From the sequence record PV204681: a stretch of DNA of 64,000 nt; one strand, given 5' to 3'. A program made the translations under genes and the position numbers. Positions 5,107 to 62,954 of this stretch are shown here, piece by piece. Origin of the DNA: Escherichia phage vB_EcoM_JQD51. The stretch's first letter is position 1, and the number at the start of each line of letters is the position of its first letter. The notes below the pieces were generated by a model. That model did not search any database. It was not told where the DNA came from and was given only the letters and a program-made list of their open reading frames with translations.

Positions 5107-5118
5107 AATTTCCTCAGT

Positions 5119-5134
5119 GGGAGCCGAAGCTCCC
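5119..5134 (-). other. Intercistronic UUCG-tetraloop hairpin without U-tract
   Basis: GGGAGC-cgaa-GCTCCC inverted repeat between stop of 5142..5507 and SD of next gene. Confidence 0.5.
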
Positions 5135-5141
5135 AATTAAA

Positions 5142-6050: not shown

Positions 6051-6075
6051 CACAAAAGGGAGACCGAAGTCTCCC
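6051..6075 (-). terminator. Intrinsic terminator (GGGAGAC-uucg-GUCUCCC + U4)
   Basis: Perfect 7-bp inverted repeat 6058-6075 with cgaa loop, A-run 6054-6057 on plus. Confidence 0.75.
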
Positions 6076-6080
6076 TAAAA

Positions 6081-9514: not shown

Positions 9515-9542
9515 TTCTATTTCCTCATTTGTTGGTAGAGTT

Positions 9543-9572
9543 ATAGTATCACAACTCCACCATGTTGTAAAC
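9543..9572 (-). promoter_or_regulatory. T4-type early promoter
   Basis: Plus atagta / gtaaac, 18-nt spacer. Confidence 0.45.
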
Positions 9573-11668: not shown

Positions 11669-11698
11669 ATTATACTCTGCTCCTGAGAGTTTGTAAAC
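11669..11698 (-). promoter_or_regulatory. T4-type early promoter with dyad ggagca...tgctcc around the -10
   Basis: Plus attata (11669-11674) / gtaaac (11693-11698), 18-nt spacer. Confidence 0.55.
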
Positions 11699-13074: not shown

Positions 13075-13104
13075 ATAGTAACACCTTCCTTGGTGTTTGT
13101 AAAC
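13075..13104 (-). promoter_or_regulatory. T4-type early promoter
   Basis: Plus atagta / gtaaac, 18-nt spacer; between rnlA stop and alc start. Confidence 0.45.
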
Positions 13105-14259: not shown

Positions 14260-14289
14260 ATTGTACCACAATCCTTGTGGCATGTAAAC
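14260..14289 (-). promoter_or_regulatory. T4-type early promoter
   Basis: Plus attgta / gtaaac, 18-nt spacer, then SD gagga before rnlA ATG. Confidence 0.45.
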
Positions 14290-18174: not shown

Positions 18175-18261
18175 ATATTCCTCAGTATAGGTTGATAGAC
18201 ATTACTCCAAACGGGATAGTATTTATCCCGTTAATTTATTATACACTTTTAAACTGAAGCG

Positions 18262-18517: not shown

Positions 18518-19378
18518 TTATACCGCCATTTTAGCTTTGATAGCTGGATGTGATTCGTAATTTTTAAGAATAAAGTCTTTAGGACGAAGTTTTAATACAT
18601 ATTCGATTTGTTCTTCGGTTGATAGATGTCTAAATTTGTATGGTAATCCGTTAATAACTAATTCACACAGTTCTTTAGGCTCACGTCGTAAAACTTCTTT
18701 GCATTGTTCTACATGATTGCTGTAGATATGCGTGTTGCCGCCTGAGAACACTAAATCACCTGGGATAAGGTTACACATCTTCGCTACAATATGCGTCAAG
18801 GCAGCGTACGAGGCAATGTTGAACGGCAGGCCCAAGAAAACATCTACACTGCGTTGATACCATTGTAAATCAAGATGACCATTACGCACATTGAACTGGT
18901 AGAACATATGGCAAGGAGGAAGTGCCATTTGATTTATTTCAGCTGGATTCCAGGCAGAAACAATTTGACGACGATCAGTTGGTAATTTTTTAATACGGTC
19001 GATTGTTTCAACTAATTGGTCTACACCGCCGAAATCACGCCATTGTTTACCATATATAGGACCAAGTTCACCGCTATGGTACCCAAGGTCTTTTGCCTGA
19101 TTTTCGTAATTATCGTCCCAAATAGTTTTACCTTCAATTAGACTACCATGGGTACGAAGACGTAATTCGTTAACATTAGTAGAACCGGACATGAACCACA
19201 GTAGTTCGGCAATACAAGCTTTCCATGCTAATTTCTTAGTTGTTACTGCAGGGAATCCTTTAGTCAGGTCCCAACGTAATTTAGTTCCGAACAGGGCAAT
19301 TGTTCCTGTGCCTGTACGGTCGTCTGTTTCATAGCCGTTTTCAAGGATATTTTTAATTAAATCTTGATATTGTTTCAT
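18518..19378 (-). CDS. td: Thymidylate synthase
   Basis: 286-aa ORF (T4 Td 286 aa); ALPPCHMFYQF catalytic-Cys motif; uninterrupted (no intron). Confidence 0.93.
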   Translation of the reverse strand: MKQYQDLIKNILENGYETDDRTGTGTIALFGTKLRWDLTKGFPAVTTKKLAWKACIAELLWFMSGSTNVNELRLRTHGSLIEGKTIWDDNYENQAKDLGYHSGELGPIYGKQWRDFGGVDQLVETIDRIKKLPTDRRQIVSAWNPAEINQMALPPCHMFYQFNVRNGHLDLQWYQRSVDVFLGLPFNIASYAALTHIVAKMCNLIPGDLVFSGGNTHIYSNHVEQCKEVLRREPKELCELVINGLPYKFRHLSTEEQIEYVLKLRPKDFILKNYESHPAIKAKMAV

Positions 19379-19391
19379 TTAGCACCTATAA

Positions 19392-20349
<958 letters not shown>

Positions 20350-21384: not shown

Positions 21385-21408
21385 TCAAAAGGGAGACCGA
21401 AGTCTCCC
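21385..21408 (-). terminator. Intrinsic terminator downstream of gene 32 (GGGAGAC-uucg-GUCUCCC + U4)
   Basis: Inverted repeat 21391-21408 with cgaa loop, A-run 21387-21390. Confidence 0.75.
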
Positions 21409-24588: not shown

Positions 24589-24653
24589 ATGAACCTCTTG
24601 TTCAGTTAGTCAACTTGACTATAGTAACATACTCATTTGAAAGCGTAAACTGG

Positions 24654-37022: not shown

Positions 37023-37655
37023 TCACAGTACGTTAGTTACAAGGGTAATGATTTCTTTGGACACATTAGGGAAGTCAATGTAAGTATATTTACCACCGAT
37101 CTTAATCTTAACATCGTTTTCAAGAGAAGTAAACAGTTTTGATTCAGTTTCTGACATGTTGTATGCAAATATTCTAAGACAACCATCTCGACGAATTTCG
37201 ATCTGACGAATACCTAGAACTCGTTTTGCAAATCGAACTTCCAAGTTACTACGGTTTTCACCAATTTCTTTAACTTCAACTTTGTCTTTAATATTTTCAA
37301 AAACAAAGTTTGCTAATTCATGCATTTCAGGAGTAACTCCACGTGCTTTTCTAGTGTTACGTTTCTGAAGAAGTTCTGGAGCATTTTCTTGGGCAAAGAG
37401 GTCTGCAGCTTTTTGGATAATATCCATTGCTTCGCCTGTTGCTATAAGTCCATCACCAGATTTTTCGACTAAACCTTTCTTAATCAATACACCAATGTTA
37501 GAGTTAACAACCGATGCATTGTATTCCGCTTCCAGAGCTTCACGGACATTGGCAGCAGTGGTGAAGTTGTTCTTAATGATATAAACCATTATTGCAGCAG
37601 TTTTTTCATTCAGAGCATTTTCAGAAGCTTTGATGATGTAAGTAACTTTAGACAT
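37023..37655 (-). CDS. motA: MotA middle-transcription activator
   Basis: 210-aa ORF (T4 MotA 211 aa) upstream of 52-region terminator. Confidence 0.8.
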   Translation of the reverse strand: MSKVTYIIKASENALNEKTAAIMVYIIKNNFTTAANVREALEAEYNASVVNSNIGVLIKKGLVEKSGDGLIATGEAMDIIQKAADLFAQENAPELLQKRNTRKARGVTPEMHELANFVFENIKDKVEVKEIGENRSNLEVRFAKRVLGIRQIEIRRDGCLRIFAYNMSETESKLFTSLENDVKIKIGGKYTYIDFPNVSKEIITLVTNVL

Positions 37656-37742
37656 TTTATTTCTCCAATTCGGTTGTTTTGTTTTGATAGGTCTATAATA
37701 TCATGTTTGAAGCACATGTAAACTGTTTTGTGAGAAAAATGC

Positions 37743-40005: not shown

Positions 40006-40035
40006 ATTATACTCTGCTCTCAAGAGTTTGTACAA
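40006..40035 (-). promoter_or_regulatory. Early promoter for ndd with dyad gagagca...tgctctc around the -10
   Basis: Plus attata (40006-40011) and ttgtac-type -35; 7-bp inverted repeat flanks the -10. Confidence 0.5.
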
Positions 40036-40238: not shown

Positions 40239-40485
40239 TTTGTGTTCCTCATGTTTCAGTAGGACTACTATACCATAATCCTACCTTGTTGTAAACAATT
40301 AAATTACATTAAAATATGTTAAAGCCAACCATGATCCAGTGAACGAACATGCGATGTAAAAACCCGTATCACAAATTGTTCTTAGTACAATAAGTGCATT
40401 TTTCATAAGTACCTCAATACAATTGAAAATACTATACAAATCATAGGGATACTAAGCAACCATATTCCGATCCACATTTTAGAGC

Positions 40486-40749
40486 TCATATCTCAACTTC
40501 CGCGAGTTCCATATATCCTTTGTTGATAACCTCTTTAAGGTCTTTAGAAAGAATAACACTAAAATGGTCGTTCATATGTCCATTAACCAGACGAGTTATT
40601 TCGGCTTCAGATGACATATAAGGCACGTCTGAGTCCCAATGAGATAGACCCAAATGGGTATAAATCATCCCTTCGTCATCTGCAGTGTTGTACATTGAAA
40701 CAAATTCGCCTGTTACTTTATGTTTTGCGTAGAAAAATTTAAATTTCAT
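40486..40749 (-). CDS. Hypothetical protein (ndd.x position)
   Basis: 87-aa ORF. Confidence 0.45.
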   Translation of the reverse strand: MKFKFFYAKHKVTGEFVSMYNTADDEGMIYTHLGLSHWDSDVPYMSSEAEITRLVNGHMNDHFSVILSKDLKEVINKGYMELAEVEI

Positions 40750-40775
40750 GATGTTATCCTCTTTTAGATAGGACT

Positions 40776-40805
40776 ACTATATCATAGTCCTACTTAGTTG
40801 TAAAC
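40776..40805 (-). promoter_or_regulatory. Early promoter with perfect 7-bp dyad TAGGACT...AGTCCTA around the -10
   Basis: Plus actata (40776-40781) / gtaaac (40800-40805), 18-nt spacer. Confidence 0.55.
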
Positions 40806-40817
40806 ACTTTTATGAAA

Positions 40818-41375
40818 TTAAAGTTGAAGATACCACCCGTTGTAGTTGCTCTTGCGGACGATTTTCTTTAGGTCTTCATGGTCTCCCACGAACTTTATAG
40901 AATAAGAGAAGACGTCAGGTGAGGTTTCTTTGACATCTAATATAATAATGCAATCTGCGACTCGATGGTTCAAGAAGGGCCCTATATTGATTCCATTACC
41001 ACCCGGATAATCACCACTGTATCCTGTGGTAACAGAAATCCATTTAGAATCTATCTGGTGTGTCTTGACTTCTACACGAATTCCACAATACTTTGGATGG
41101 GCTAATACGTCCCATGCATACGTGTACGGGTCTTCTACGTCTTCAATACCTTTATTAACATATCCGTCTAGCCAATTTGCTACTACATACTCTGCAAAGA
41201 CCGCAACCTTACAACGTCGAACTACGTCTTCTTTTATTTGACCTGGATCTTGTTTCAATGAGTACCGAGCAGTGTCAGCAATCTTCACCTTCATTTCACT
41301 AGTCAAAAACTCATTCGACAGGATAAATGTCGGAAGATTCTTCAGTCTCAACAGTCCCAAGTTCGTCTTTACCAT
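40818..41375 (-). CDS. denB: Possible endonuclease IV (DenB-like), by position and size
   Basis: ORF track 40818..41438; internal Met at 41375 gives 185 aa, the size of T4 DenB; between ndd block and rIIB. Confidence 0.4.
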   Translation of the reverse strand: MVKTNLGLLRLKNLPTFILSNEFLTSEMKVKIADTARYSLKQDPGQIKEDVVRRCKVAVFAEYVVANWLDGYVNKGIEDVEDPYTYAWDVLAHPKYCGIRVEVKTHQIDSKWISVTTGYSGDYPGGNGINIGPFLNHRVADCIIILDVKETSPDVFSYSIKFVGDHEDLKKIVRKSNYNGWYLQL

Positions 41376-41598
41376 AGATACCTCTGATGTGTAGTTCGCC
41401 AAAATAAATGCGGTCACCTTCTTCAAGATATTCTGCATCTACAGGCGGAATTTCAATAACAACTTCGTCGCATTCTAACCAACCATAGTGTGCATCGCCA
41501 GGATGTTTTACCAATTTAGCACAATAAACCGATTTACACTTATGATGACCACGAAGATTAGCAATTTTGGATTCTGATACGTCAAATGGATGAATCAT
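41311..41598 (-). CDS. Hypothetical protein (about 95 aa)
   Basis: ORF track 41311..41649; start moved to Met at 41598 (SD agggg) downstream of rIIB terminator. Confidence 0.4.
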   Translation of the reverse strand: MIHPFDVSESKIANLRGHHKCKSVYCAKLVKHPGDAHYGWLECDEVVIEIPPVDAEYLEEGDRIYFGELHIRGIYGKDELGTVETEESSDIYPVE

Positions 41599-41610: not shown

Positions 41611-41633
41611 AGAAAAAGGGGACCGAAGTCCCC
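41611..41633 (-). terminator. Intrinsic terminator after rIIB (GGGGAC-uucg-GUCCCC + U5)
   Basis: Inverted repeat 41618-41633, A5 at 41613-41617. Confidence 0.75.
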
Positions 41634-45044: not shown

Positions 45045-45101
45045 TAGGGCACTATTACTAAAGACCATATAATCTATCATCTTATGTGTAATAGTGCCTC
45101 A
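45045..45101 (-). promoter_or_regulatory. Long inverted repeat (12-bp arms, about 30-nt AT-rich loop containing tataat-like hexamers) upstream of rIIA.1
   Basis: gggcactattac ... gtaatagtgcct, 11/12 complementary. Confidence 0.45.
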
Positions 45102-45114
45102 GGCGATTCAGGAT

Positions 45115-46215
45115 TTACGCTGTGAAGATTTTATCCCACATCGCAACAACTGCATCTCGGTTATACTTCTTCCATACTGCTTCAGCACGTTTAACTCGAG
45201 CTTCGTATGTGTCAGTGAATTCTAATACAGCTTTTGTGTAAAGCGCAACTACTTCTTTCTTAGGAGTAGAGGAATCAATTTCTACACGCACAGTATCTGG
45301 GTCGTATTCGAATGTCGCATGAGGATAATCCTTAAAAACTAACTGGATTACAGGGACACCTTTAGAGATGGCTTCAATAGAACTATTCTCTACAGTACCT
45401 GTGTCAGGACACGTATTAATAAGCGCTTTAGCTGTTTTAAGACGTTCCATGATTTCACTGTGTGGAGCATCAATAATAACAGGATATTTAGCTGGTGGTG
45501 CCCATTTACTAGGACAGTATCCTACACCATTTTCGCCTAGTGCTTTAATCGCTTCAAGAGCAACATCAGTACGACGCATTTTAGTGTCATAACGTTGTGC
45601 ACTAATAATCAGATCAGTCGCCGGAAGAACTTCATGTTTCTCATTCAAACAAATAACCGGATAATCTTCGGCTTCAAACAACGGATTTGCTCGCCAATAA
45701 TCATAATCAATTTTGTCAGTCAGACCTGAAGTCATATAACAATATTTGCGTTCAAATTCACGGAAGGCTTTAGTAGGAGCATAACTCTTACCACCATTCT
45801 TATGAATTTGAATAGTCTGGTCCCAAATTTGAACAATGCCACGAGATACTGGTTCAAATGGTGTTGCCATAAAATTCTTATGAACTTTAGAGAGACCTGC
45901 GTCTTTAATTGCCTGAACGGTTAGTTTAGTCGGTTCCATAGTAACAACAAAATCGTATTCATGGATGCCGGCTAGTTCAACAATCTTACGAGCCATAGTA
46001 TAACTCATACCTAGACTGAATTTAGTCAGATGACCAACAGGATGATGATTAACTTTCCAATCACCAAATGTGTCATTATCAAAGCCGATATAATCAATAT
46101 CAGCACCGATGGACACAAGATATTTCAACACATTTAAATGTACTGCTTCAAGGCCACCTTGTACACGGTCAGGATTAAATGGGACTGCACGAGATGGGAT
46201 AAACATAACTTTCAT
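45115..46215 (-). CDS. GT-B fold glycosyltransferase-like protein (candidate DNA sugar-transferase)
   Basis: 366-aa ORF; N-terminal MKVMFIPS...GG.E...L..L...G and C-terminal E.SSIEAISKGVPVI pattern resemble GT4-type glycosyltransferases; motif-level inference only. Confidence 0.5.
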   Translation of the reverse strand: MKVMFIPSRAVPFNPDRVQGGLEAVHLNVLKYLVSIGADIDYIGFDNDTFGDWKVNHHPVGHLTKFSLGMSYTMARKIVELAGIHEYDFVVTMEPTKLTVQAIKDAGLSKVHKNFMATPFEPVSRGIVQIWDQTIQIHKNGGKSYAPTKAFREFERKYCYMTSGLTDKIDYDYWRANPLFEAEDYPVICLNEKHEVLPATDLIISAQRYDTKMRRTDVALEAIKALGENGVGYCPSKWAPPAKYPVIIDAPHSEIMERLKTAKALINTCPDTGTVENSSIEAISKGVPVIQLVFKDYPHATFEYDPDTVRVEIDSSTPKKEVVALYTKAVLEFTDTYEARVKRAEAVWKKYNRDAVVAMWDKIFTA

Positions 46216-46230
46216 AATTAAGCCTTATTA

Positions 46231-46259
46231 AAATTAAAATGAAGCTCCCGAAGGAGCTT
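46231..46259 (-). terminator. Intrinsic terminator after gene 39 (AAGCUCC-uucg-GGAGCUU + U-rich)
   Basis: Inverted repeat 46242-46259 overlapping gp39 stop. Confidence 0.65.
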
Positions 46260-48120: not shown

Positions 48121-48140
48121 CAAAAAGGGCCGAAGCCCTT
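48121..48140 (-). terminator. Intrinsic terminator (AGGGC-uucg-GCCCU + U-run)
   Basis: Inverted repeat 48126-48139, A-run 48122-48125. Confidence 0.65.
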
Positions 48141-49968: not shown

Positions 49969-50027
49969 ATTATTCTCCTCTGGTTGATATGGTTATAATA
50001 TCAAAACCAGAGGAGAAGTAAACAACT

Positions 50028-55412: not shown

Positions 55413-55994
55413 CTAAAAATTCAACATCTTTAAGTGAATGATTTTGTATACTCGAGACAAAGGGTCATACTCTAACTCTTCGATTTCCACAATCTCAAAT
55501 CTAGAGATACTTGAAACCATGTACTCTTGTTCAGATTCAATCATATCTAGGACATCAACACGTGTTTCTTCCATAACATGCTTAGGGTTCTTTCCGGCGA
55601 GTACAATATTAACCATGTTTTGGTAGTAATCAAAAATGAATGGAGCATTCCTGAGACTAAGAATAGTGTACGTCTGATATTCCCATCTCCCAGAGAATTG
55701 ACGAGCTGTACTGAAATCAGTTGTGAACGATGTTACTCGTCCAGGAGACCAATGGCATCCAACAGAAAGAAGGGAAAGACGTTCTACTTCTTCTGGAGTT
55801 ACACCACGGTAGAGTTCTACTGGTACTGTAGAAGTCATATGCTTACGAACAAGATGGTCTAATTCATAGTGGAAATCCGGGTCTTCCTTAGAATCGGTGC
55901 AAGCCCAGAGAATGTTTTGTTCTTGGTGGGTGAATTTGCTATCAATCAGATTTGTTAGGTATTCACGTTCTTGAAGTTCAGATTGACATGTCAT
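55413..55994 (-). CDS. modB: ADP-ribosyltransferase ModB-like (R-S-ExE class)
   Basis: 193-aa ORF; LYRG ... SFT ... EQEY motif order; paralog of adjacent modA-like. Confidence 0.55.
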   Translation of the reverse strand: MTCQSELQEREYLTNLIDSKFTHQEQNILWACTDSKEDPDFHYELDHLVRKHMTSTVPVELYRGVTPEEVERLSLLSVGCHWSPGRVTSFTTDFSTARQFSGRWEYQTYTILSLRNAPFIFDYYQNMVNIVLAGKNPKHVMEETRVDVLDMIESEQEYMVSSISRFEIVEIEELEYDPLSRVYKIIHLKMLNF

Positions 55995-56210
55995 GATAGA
56001 CCTCCATTTAAAGATAAGCCTATCATAACACGAGAGGAGGGAATGTAAACTATTTTTTAAGCTTTCCTACTAAAGGTCCATCAGGACCAGGTTGTTCTAA
56101 CATGAATAAGGATGCTTTAAAAAGCAATGTCAACCCTTTCACCATTCGATACCATGTCTCAAAGTCTTTTTCCTTGATTTCTAGTAAGAATTTCTCTTTC
56201 AATTTCTCTT

Positions 56211-57526: not shown

Positions 57527-57554
57527 ACAAAAAAAGGAATCCCGAAGGATTCCT
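57527..57554 (-). terminator. Intrinsic terminator after soc (AGGAAUCC-uucg-GGAUUCCU + U7)
   Basis: 8-bp inverted repeat 57535-57554, A-run 57527-57535. Confidence 0.8.
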
Positions 57555-57562
57555 TAAATTAT

Positions 57563-62866: not shown

Positions 62867-62924
62867 TTTGTTCTCCTCTTGGTTGGTGTAAGTACATCAT
62901 ATCATGCCTAGAGGAAGATGTAAA

Positions 62925-62949
62925 CCCCGAAAGGAGACCGAAGTCTCCT
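62925..62949 (-). terminator. Intrinsic terminator after gene 41 (AGGAGAC-uucg-GUCUCCU + U-rich)
   Basis: Inverted repeat 62932-62949 with cgaa loop. Confidence 0.7.
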
Positions 62950-62954
62950 TTTTA

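Follow-up and report, generated by a model that had tools for sequence, protein, structure and literature searches.

PeSL cassettes have been described in T4-type phages (Arbiol et al. 2010, PMC2839356; Comeau et al. 2014, PMC4122927). Arbiol et al. reported promoter activity of these cassettes, a terminator-like effect of one stem-loop, and mini-circles that form via exchange between cassettes and were seen by inverse PCR (PMC2839356). The stem-loop of an RB49 PeSL lowered lacZ expression as much as rrnB T1, and the published mini-circle junctions fall within PeSLs, one of them in the loop of a stem-loop (PMC2839356). Comeau et al. extended PeSLs to the phage pairs T4/PST and KVP40/nt-1, with the ndd region as an example (PMC4122927). 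In a second described system, the T4 genes e, soc, 49 and I-TevI have an internal promoter, and a long read-through RNA masks the SD/AUG of the gene, while the promoter-proximal transcript does not (PMC3014915).

We analysed a stretch of 64,000 nucleotides from Escherichia phage vB_EcoM_JQD51 (PV204681), referred to at its full length as the window. Its genes are carried by the minus strand, with the exception of the tail-fibre block, and all promoters and embedded dyads of the window given below lie on that strand. The stretch from 38 to 43 kb, which holds gene 52 (topoisomerase), ndd, denB, rIIB and rIIA, showed 98% identity to Mosigvirus phages (ST0, HX01, ZQ3), and the 101 nt around the promoter under study were 99% identical to RB69, where they are sited between denB and RB69ORF270c. 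This focal promoter has a -35 hexamer GTTTAC (40800-40805) 12 nt past the stop of denB (ORF 40818-41438), an 18-nt spacer, and a -10 hexamer TATAGT (40776-40781) that is extended by the TGa just before it. Inverted repeats on or near the -10 had been claimed for this and a number of further promoters, and direct inspection confirmed them with coordinate offsets of a few bases. The focal dyad, which the original prediction had placed at 40771-40795, is an exact inverted repeat, TAGGACTA-N8-TAGTCCTA, with 8-bp arms and 8 nt in between; its 5' arm lies in the spacer at positions -23 to -16 (40785-40792), and its 3' arm begins at the final T of the -10 and runs from -7 to about +1 (40769-40776). 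The corresponding RNA hairpin was predicted at -13.2 kcal/mol (z -2.7), and it leaves uncovered the SD AGAGGA (40757-40762) and the ATG (40747-40749) of an 87-aa, RB69ORF270c-like ORF. In a promoter scan, the top ranks went to 40804, 40295 and 40034. No homolog of the ORF downstream of the focal promoter was found in the T4 regions searched, and a protein-based IMG/VR search for its orthologs returned only three, near-identical loci. An IMG/VR scan with the pattern GTTTAC-N18-TATAGTAG gave mostly chance matches, with about a dozen true T4-like promoters, and an Rfam gathering scan over the window gave zero matches.

A set of 25 minus-strand promoters was curated by motif (a GTTTAC-like hexamer, N17-19 and TAnnnT, then an SD and the ATG of an ORF of at least 40 aa), with start sites inferred from the -10. 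Stems were scored in a 48-nt segment anchored on the -10 and compared to four nulls of 300 replicates each, i.e. two within-sequence shuffles that kept the -10, column permutation between promoters, and genomic TAnnnT sites. Of the 25 promoters, 13 had a perfect stem of 6 bp or more, compared to 2.8-3.9 in the nulls, and five had one of 8 bp or more, compared to 0.15-0.33, while the mean MFE of the 25 promoters was -9.5 kcal/mol compared to -4.3 to -5.8 kcal/mol. The observed stem counts and MFE were matched by none of the 300 replicates in any of the four nulls. For an arm-swap test, we exchanged the 3' halves between 75 distinct T-even promoters from the window, T4, JS98 and T4-like metagenomic contigs; the T4 promoters were located by our own motif scan, the RefSeq T4 record being without promoter features. 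At least six consecutive pairs in the register (-16-k, -7+k) were found in 19 of the 75 promoters, compared to 3.8 ± 1.6 in the null (maximum 11 in 2000), and when the register was slid by 1-3 nt only 0-2 promoters of this set paired. Each 3' arm is complementary to the 5' arm of its own promoter and not to the arms of other promoters. Pairing per column, with all 75 promoters in a single fixed register, was weak (z up to 2.5), since only a quarter of the promoters use this register and the consensus is partly self-complementary. Overall, the promoter dyads are real, robust and far above chance, and the recurrence on which the original prediction was built holds against shuffled controls.

The dyad centres fell into discrete groups that define four helix types (A, B, C and D), which are common to the window, T4, JS98 and RB49. 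In type A, the arms start at -16 and -7 and extend outward, with the extended -10 block TGnTATAa as the loop, and the centre is in most cases exactly -11.5. Nine promoters of the window are of type A, the focal one among them. The neighbouring promoter at 40291-40296 carries GTAGGATTA-N8-TAGTCCTAC (40259-40284) with one U:G wobble on the sense strand, and the ndd promoter, with its -35 TTGTAC at 40030-40035, carries TGAGAGCA-gagtataa-TGCTCTCA (8 bp, 39999-40006/40015-40022). At the sp (spackle) promoter, the dyad is GGACTA-tagtatag-TAGTCC (6 bp, 61369-61374/61383-61388). The 10-bp dyad GATAGGGCTA-N8-TAGCCCTATC (20870-20879/20888-20897; -18.7 kcal/mol, z -6.5) has a G:C in place of an A:U pair of the focal arms. 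Further dyads of this type are AGGAGCA-gagtataa-TGCTCCT (7 bp, 11663-11669/11678-11684), TGGTGGAGTT-N10-AACTCTACCA with one G:U at the cd.2 promoter (9533-9562), and TTGGTACAGGT-N13-ACCTGTACCAA (11 bp, 5536-5546/5560-5570; -17.9 kcal/mol, z -3.6). The dyad of the cef promoter, GTCTAT-gatact-ATAGAC (6 bp, 49411-49416/49423-49428), is type A-like and weak (z -1.2).

In type B, a pyrimidine-rich 5' arm (TTCTCCTC...) stands straight after the -35, and the 3' arm is the SD region of the gene. The repeat TGGTT...AACCA, predicted at 49984-50004, proved to be the inner part of such a helix, in which 13 bp join the spacer arm TTCTCCTCTGGTT to AACCAGAGGAGAA, the SD of a motB.2-like gene (49973-49985/50005-50017; -23.7 kcal/mol, z -7.0). 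Type C is a 5-7-bp stem within the spacer, centred at about -20, with ACCAC...GTGGT and variants such as CAACCA/TGGTTG and CATGT/ACATG; examples are CCACAA-gga-TTGTGG at the rnlA promoter (14266-14280) and AACACC-aaggaa-GGTGTT at the alc promoter (13080-13097). In type D, found at the modB promoter both here and in T4, the ATGATAG of the -10 region forms a helix with the CTATCATg that lies at the start codon; in the window the helix ATGATAG/CTATCAT spans 55993-56026 and its 3' strand overlaps the ATG of modB. Two further hairpins were observed on the minus strand. A small dyad of the rnh promoter, TAGTCA-agt-TGACTA (24607-24621), runs downstream from the final T of the -10 (24621) and, unlike the others, would sit partly within the promoter's own transcript. 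Between nrdA and the next gene upstream, the hairpin AACGGGATA-aatac-TATCCCGTT (18210-18232) stands downstream of a promoter-like site, ATTAAC-N17-TATAAT, and would be inside the own transcript of that site.

When orthologous promoters of T4 were compared, the helices of cd.2, motB.2 and modB were found to be kept. The cd.2 hairpin is conserved in T4 with its G:U at another position, and the anti-SD helix of motB.2 is retained with differing extensions (TTCTCCTCTGGTT/AACCAGAGGAGAA in the window, TTCCTCGGTTAG/CTACTGAGGA in T4 and TTCTCCTCATG/CATGAGGAGAA in JS98). The hairpin of the sp promoter is absent from the T4 ortholog, and the alc promoter is of type C in the window and of type B in T4, so hairpins at orthologous promoters are not invariably kept. 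T4 also carries type B helices at alc, ndd.4, motB.2 and 30.8 and, upstream of dmd, a type A dyad of 10 bp. In a scan of RB49 we found these layouts again, in agreement with the description by its authors; one of the RB49 hairpins surrounds the -10 and is followed by a U tail. Upstream of T4 rnlA (about 137470-137520), a MotA-box (middle) promoter replaces the GTTTAC early promoter of the window, and the spacer hairpin CCACA...TGTGG is kept in both.

In the cassettes of the window, the early promoter is of the sigma70 type, is preceded by an AT-rich tract and occupies a short gap between genes of the same direction; an SD and ATG follow, and the stem-loop position, the 5' stop and the 3' SD and start codon are likewise those of PeSLs. 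The cassettes at 40805 and 40296 are 64% identical over 90 nt, and their longest exact match is 13 nt. When the focal 101-nt cassette was used as a query, 208 phage records contained 900 matching places, 4-7 being typical of a genome, and the same cassette core was found upstream of unrelated genes in other genera. Cassettes bordered an ORF indel in one clear case, that of motA: the window has a single copy of the motA promoter cassette (37647-37724), which begins at the -35 and includes 9 nt of motA, and in ST0 (19325-19766) two tandem motA cassettes, both of which retain the first 9 nt of motA (ATGTCTAAA), lie on either side of a 71-aa ORF not present in the window. The number of copies per genome, the tandem cassettes around the extra ORF of ST0, the core before unrelated genes and the published mini-circle junctions inside PeSLs, one of them in a loop (PMC2839356), would all agree with a device for recombination only, in which the repeats promote or mark exchange between PeSLs (excision of mini-circles and insertion) and have no role in RNA. 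However, homologous exchange requires likeness between copies and not self-complementarity within one, and the arms vary between copies yet are complementary within each. Furthermore, an 8-bp arm with an 8-nt loop makes a poor cruciform, and the G:U bias and the SD pairing described below indicate RNA. A role in recombination alone is therefore unlikely.

Intergenic gaps between co-directional genes of the window are short, often only 55-76 nt, and the ends of the upstream ORFs coincide with the -35 or precede it by up to 12 nt (11698, 20908, 55413, 14289, 56050 and 40818). At 11698, 20908, 55413, 14289, 56050 and 4492, the upstream stop overlaps or abuts the -35 (e.g. TAGTTTAC), and the gap consists of promoter and ribosome site only. 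Promoter-bearing gaps of at least 88 nt hold a separate hairpin just upstream of the promoter, with a GC-rich stem, a UUCG tetraloop and mostly a U tail (62930-62951, 57534-57555, 21391-21408 and 6057-6076), whereas gaps of 55-76 nt have the embedded dyad instead; promoter-free gaps frequently hold hairpins too. Further intercistronic UUCG hairpins with GC-rich stems were observed at 48126-48139, 46243-46258 and 5118-5135, the latter two without a clear U tail. Another, GGGGAC-UUCG-GUCCCC with a minus-strand U tail, lies just downstream of rIIB (41618-41633) and was flagged on both strands by the scan. The repeat that the original prediction had counted among early promoters at 45045-45101 is a real hairpin of considerable length on the minus strand (45047-45098; arms 45047-45058/45088-45098, GGCACTATTAC/GTAATAGTGCC, with flanking pairs; -28.5 kcal/mol, z -4.45), located between a 366-aa ORF (45115-46215) and an rIIA.1-like ORF. 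It has no U tail, and the promoter scan found no sigma70-type site there; this hairpin may be an RNA processing or stability element.

Both the embedded dyads and the canonical terminators of the window are intercistronic RNA hairpins right after a stop and often right before an early promoter; the terminators have a GC stem, UUCG and a U tail, and the embedded dyads have AU-rich stems, loops of 6-13 nt made of promoter sequence, and no U tail. None of the embedded hairpins has a U run behind it on the minus strand, where the focal tail is TCTAAAAG and the other type A tails are A-rich. The plus-strand scan lists the focal hairpin as terminator-like, with the tail CTTAGTTGTA. If the embedded hairpins were efficient intrinsic terminators, they would end the upstream transcription units in the canonical way, and the RB49 PeSL stem-loop that cut lacZ expression like rrnB T1 (PMC2839356), together with the U tail of the one RB49 hairpin enclosing the -10, speaks for such a role. 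Yet the 3' arms in the window are followed by A-rich sequence (tctaaaag, tcaaatc, aaataaaa), the stems are AU-rich, and clear-cut terminators, with GC stems, UUCG loops and U tails, occur elsewhere in this genome. The lack of U tails makes efficient intrinsic termination, which has been proposed for RB49 PeSLs, doubtful here; we rejected the canonical-terminator reading on these grounds and consider it quite improbable.

All 5' arms lie upstream of the inferred +1, at -29 to -5, so the helices are possible only in RNA begun further upstream or in DNA, and the earlier statement that transcripts from these promoters would lack the full hairpin is correct by geometry. Four observations speak for RNA of the sense strand. 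First, at least seven distinct stems occupy one register with double-sided changes (among them GGACTA/TAGTCC, GGGCTA/TAGCCC, AGACTA/TAGTCT, GGAGCA/TGCTCC and GGGTAG/TTACCC). Second, the transition mismatches in helices with at least seven Watson-Crick pairs were G:T in 16 cases and A:C in 3 on the sense strand, a small sample of 19 (p 0.004 against 0.5), while random sense-strand segments gave 57 G:T and 40 A:C. Read on the opposite strand, or in a cruciform, each of these G:T positions is an A:C mismatch; a site recognised as double-stranded DNA would not produce such an asymmetry. Third, the spacer pairs better with the SD region of its own gene than with those of others (the observed mean was reached in 5 of 5000 permutations), and this complementarity extends past the SD core, e.g. 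in TTCTCCTCATG/CATGAGGAGAA of JS98. Fourth, orthologous promoters retain their helices although the sequence has changed, as seen at motB.2 and cd.2. These features of the sequences suggest that the pairing most likely acts in sense-strand RNA that reads through the promoter.

The G:U bias is equally compatible with a hairpin in the single-stranded non-template DNA strand, which might fold during melting or replication and tune promoter opening or escape; folding of the sense strand would predict the same G:T bias, and the -10 element lies in the loop. However, the open complex is melted only from about -11 to +2, and 5' arms at -29 to -16 remain duplex. The spacer hairpins of type C are outside the bubble as well, and types B and D pair with an SD or AUG 25-45 nt away, which is sensible only for RNA. 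A strand-specific DNA hairpin is thus very unlikely.

The original prediction had named two levels at which the symmetry might act, a DNA site for a dimeric protein and read-through transcripts. Covariation, the G:U excess and the 3' arms that are SD or AUG favour the read-through RNA, while the protein site is left without a half-site. An operator of this kind, bound by a dimeric phage or host protein such as a factor that shuts off T4 early promoters, would account for dyads placed on the -10 at a very sharp register, with the centre at -11.5, and for the recurrence of the TAGGACTA-N8-TAGTCCTA version at several promoters in several genera; reviews also call the mechanism of early-promoter shut-off unexplained. 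The dyads share no half-site, however; they have at least seven unrelated arm sequences, loops of 3 to 45 nt and four dyad centres, and this variation in half-site, spacing and position makes a sequence-specific dimeric protein unlikely. The mismatches are strand-asymmetric, so that the symmetry is unequal between the strands, and some 3' arms are an SD or AUG. The sharp -11.5 register is explained by arms that start just outside the bases the promoter needs, the TGnTATAa block. With no shared half-site and with G:T far in excess of A:C, the cruciform or operator reading was rejected, and we would give it only a slim chance. It is just as improbable that the -11.5 dyads, chiefly the TAGGACTA-N8-TAGTCCTA family, are recognised as DNA by a structure- or sequence-specific factor that shuts off T-even early promoters about 3 minutes post-infection. 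Chance or a composition artefact of the AT-rich consensus (e.g. the TATA palindrome), to which the partial self-complementarity of the consensus (GATAGG...CCTATC) and pairing of about 45-55% per position in the column-shuffled nulls might point, is refuted by the four nulls and the arm-swap test and has next to no probability.

The 3' strand of the helix covers the SD/AUG at 49973-50017 and 55993-56026 and, weakly, at 62874-62915; the helices of types A and C, that of the focal site among them, leave the SD/AUG uncovered. When the computed accessibility from SD to AUG was compared between read-through RNA and RNA with shuffled upstream sequence, the mean difference was -0.04 (p 0.07), which is not significant overall. 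Accessibility was markedly lower only in a subset that includes 50023, 56050, 13104, T4 modB and JS98 motB.2, and several type A promoters were slightly more open in read-through RNA than with shuffled upstream sequence.

We consider it probable that the dyads of the window belong to PeSL-type composite cassettes in which a stem-loop is interleaved with the promoter and its pairing is selected in sense-strand RNA. In gaps of only 55-76 nt, the stem-loop must be interleaved with the promoter, and this would be achieved in four ways: by arms that flank TGnTATAa (A), by a stem within the spacer (C), by pairing of spacer and SD (B), or by pairing of the -10 region with the start codon (D). The helix would exist solely in transcripts that begin at an upstream promoter and read through. 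Types A and C would then form a compact intercistronic hairpin, with possible roles in the attenuation or pausing of read-through, in protection of the upstream cistron at its 3' end, and in preventing promoter sequence from pairing with the ribosome site downstream. Types B and D would mask the ribosome site in read-through RNA, with the result that translation would come mainly from the gene's own early-promoter transcript, in an early-promoter version of the logic known from e, soc, 49 and I-TevI. The repeated cassettes may double as homology patches for ORF shuffling. The dyads with their enrichment, covariation, G:U bias and geometry, the repetition of the cassettes and the one indel bounded by cassettes are results of the analysis, and every functional role given here for the hairpins and cassettes is one that we infer.

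Under this PeSL-type reading, T-even phages would pack two signals into gaps of 55-75 nt, a promoter read as DNA and a helix read as RNA, and the same DNA would give rise to different RNA structures depending on where transcription starts. In the subset with anti-SD spacers, whether a gene is translated would depend on its own early promoter, which is the mirror image of the late-gene cases. For annotation and engineering, the cassettes would mark likely recombination joints, and edits to a promoter spacer may alter the expression of neighbouring genes via RNA structure.

Among known systems, the hairpin promoters of phage N4 can be compared to these dyads. There, the promoter of the virion RNA polymerase is a DNA hairpin that is itself the recognition element. 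Both have an inverted repeat centred on a promoter element, but the promoters of the window are ordinary sigma70 sites and the evidence is for RNA. With the masks of T4 e, soc, 49 and I-TevI, types B and D share the exact geometry, with the promoter in or after the DNA of the 5' strand. However, the internal promoters of the T4 genes are late ones (TATAAATA) and delay translation, whereas the early promoter here would confine translation to its own transcript; the T4 masks also cover the ribosome site, which the focal type A hairpin does not.

The closest system is the PeSL itself. The original prediction had suggested that such symmetry was not described for T4 early promoters; this was mistaken, as PeSLs were already published (PMC2839356, PMC4122927) and T4 has the dyad upstream of dmd. 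PeSLs have been described for RB49/phi1, T4/PST and KVP40/nt-1, and not for RB69-like Mosigvirus phages. Arbiol et al. make no mention of spacer pairing with the SD or AUG, nor of RB69 (PMC2839356), and hairpins or inverted repeats are not mentioned in the RB69 promoter paper. The ndd-denB region, which contains the focal site, is one of the published PST/T4 examples. PeSLs and the cassettes of the window alike combine a stop codon, an AT-rich tract, a sigma70 early promoter, a stem-loop, an SD and a start codon; in both, the stem-loop lies between the -35 and -10 or overlaps the -10, G-T pairs included, and in both the cassettes are repeated in hyperplastic regions and border ORF indels. The published stem-loops of T4/PST that stand just upstream of the promoter are the counterpart of the UUCG terminators in the longer gaps of the window. 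The two differ in that the stems of RB49 PeSLs are G/C-rich, at least some with U tails, whereas those of the window are AU-rich without a U tail. The core observation thus has precedents; what it contributes is the extension of PeSLs to RB69-like phages, along with evidence for the level at which the pairing acts. Judged by layout and sequence, the dyads of the window are the PeSL architecture already published, now in an RB69-like phage. Two points are modest additions, namely evidence for selection of the pairing in sense RNA and the recognition that in some early promoters the spacer is an anti-SD or anti-AUG strand.
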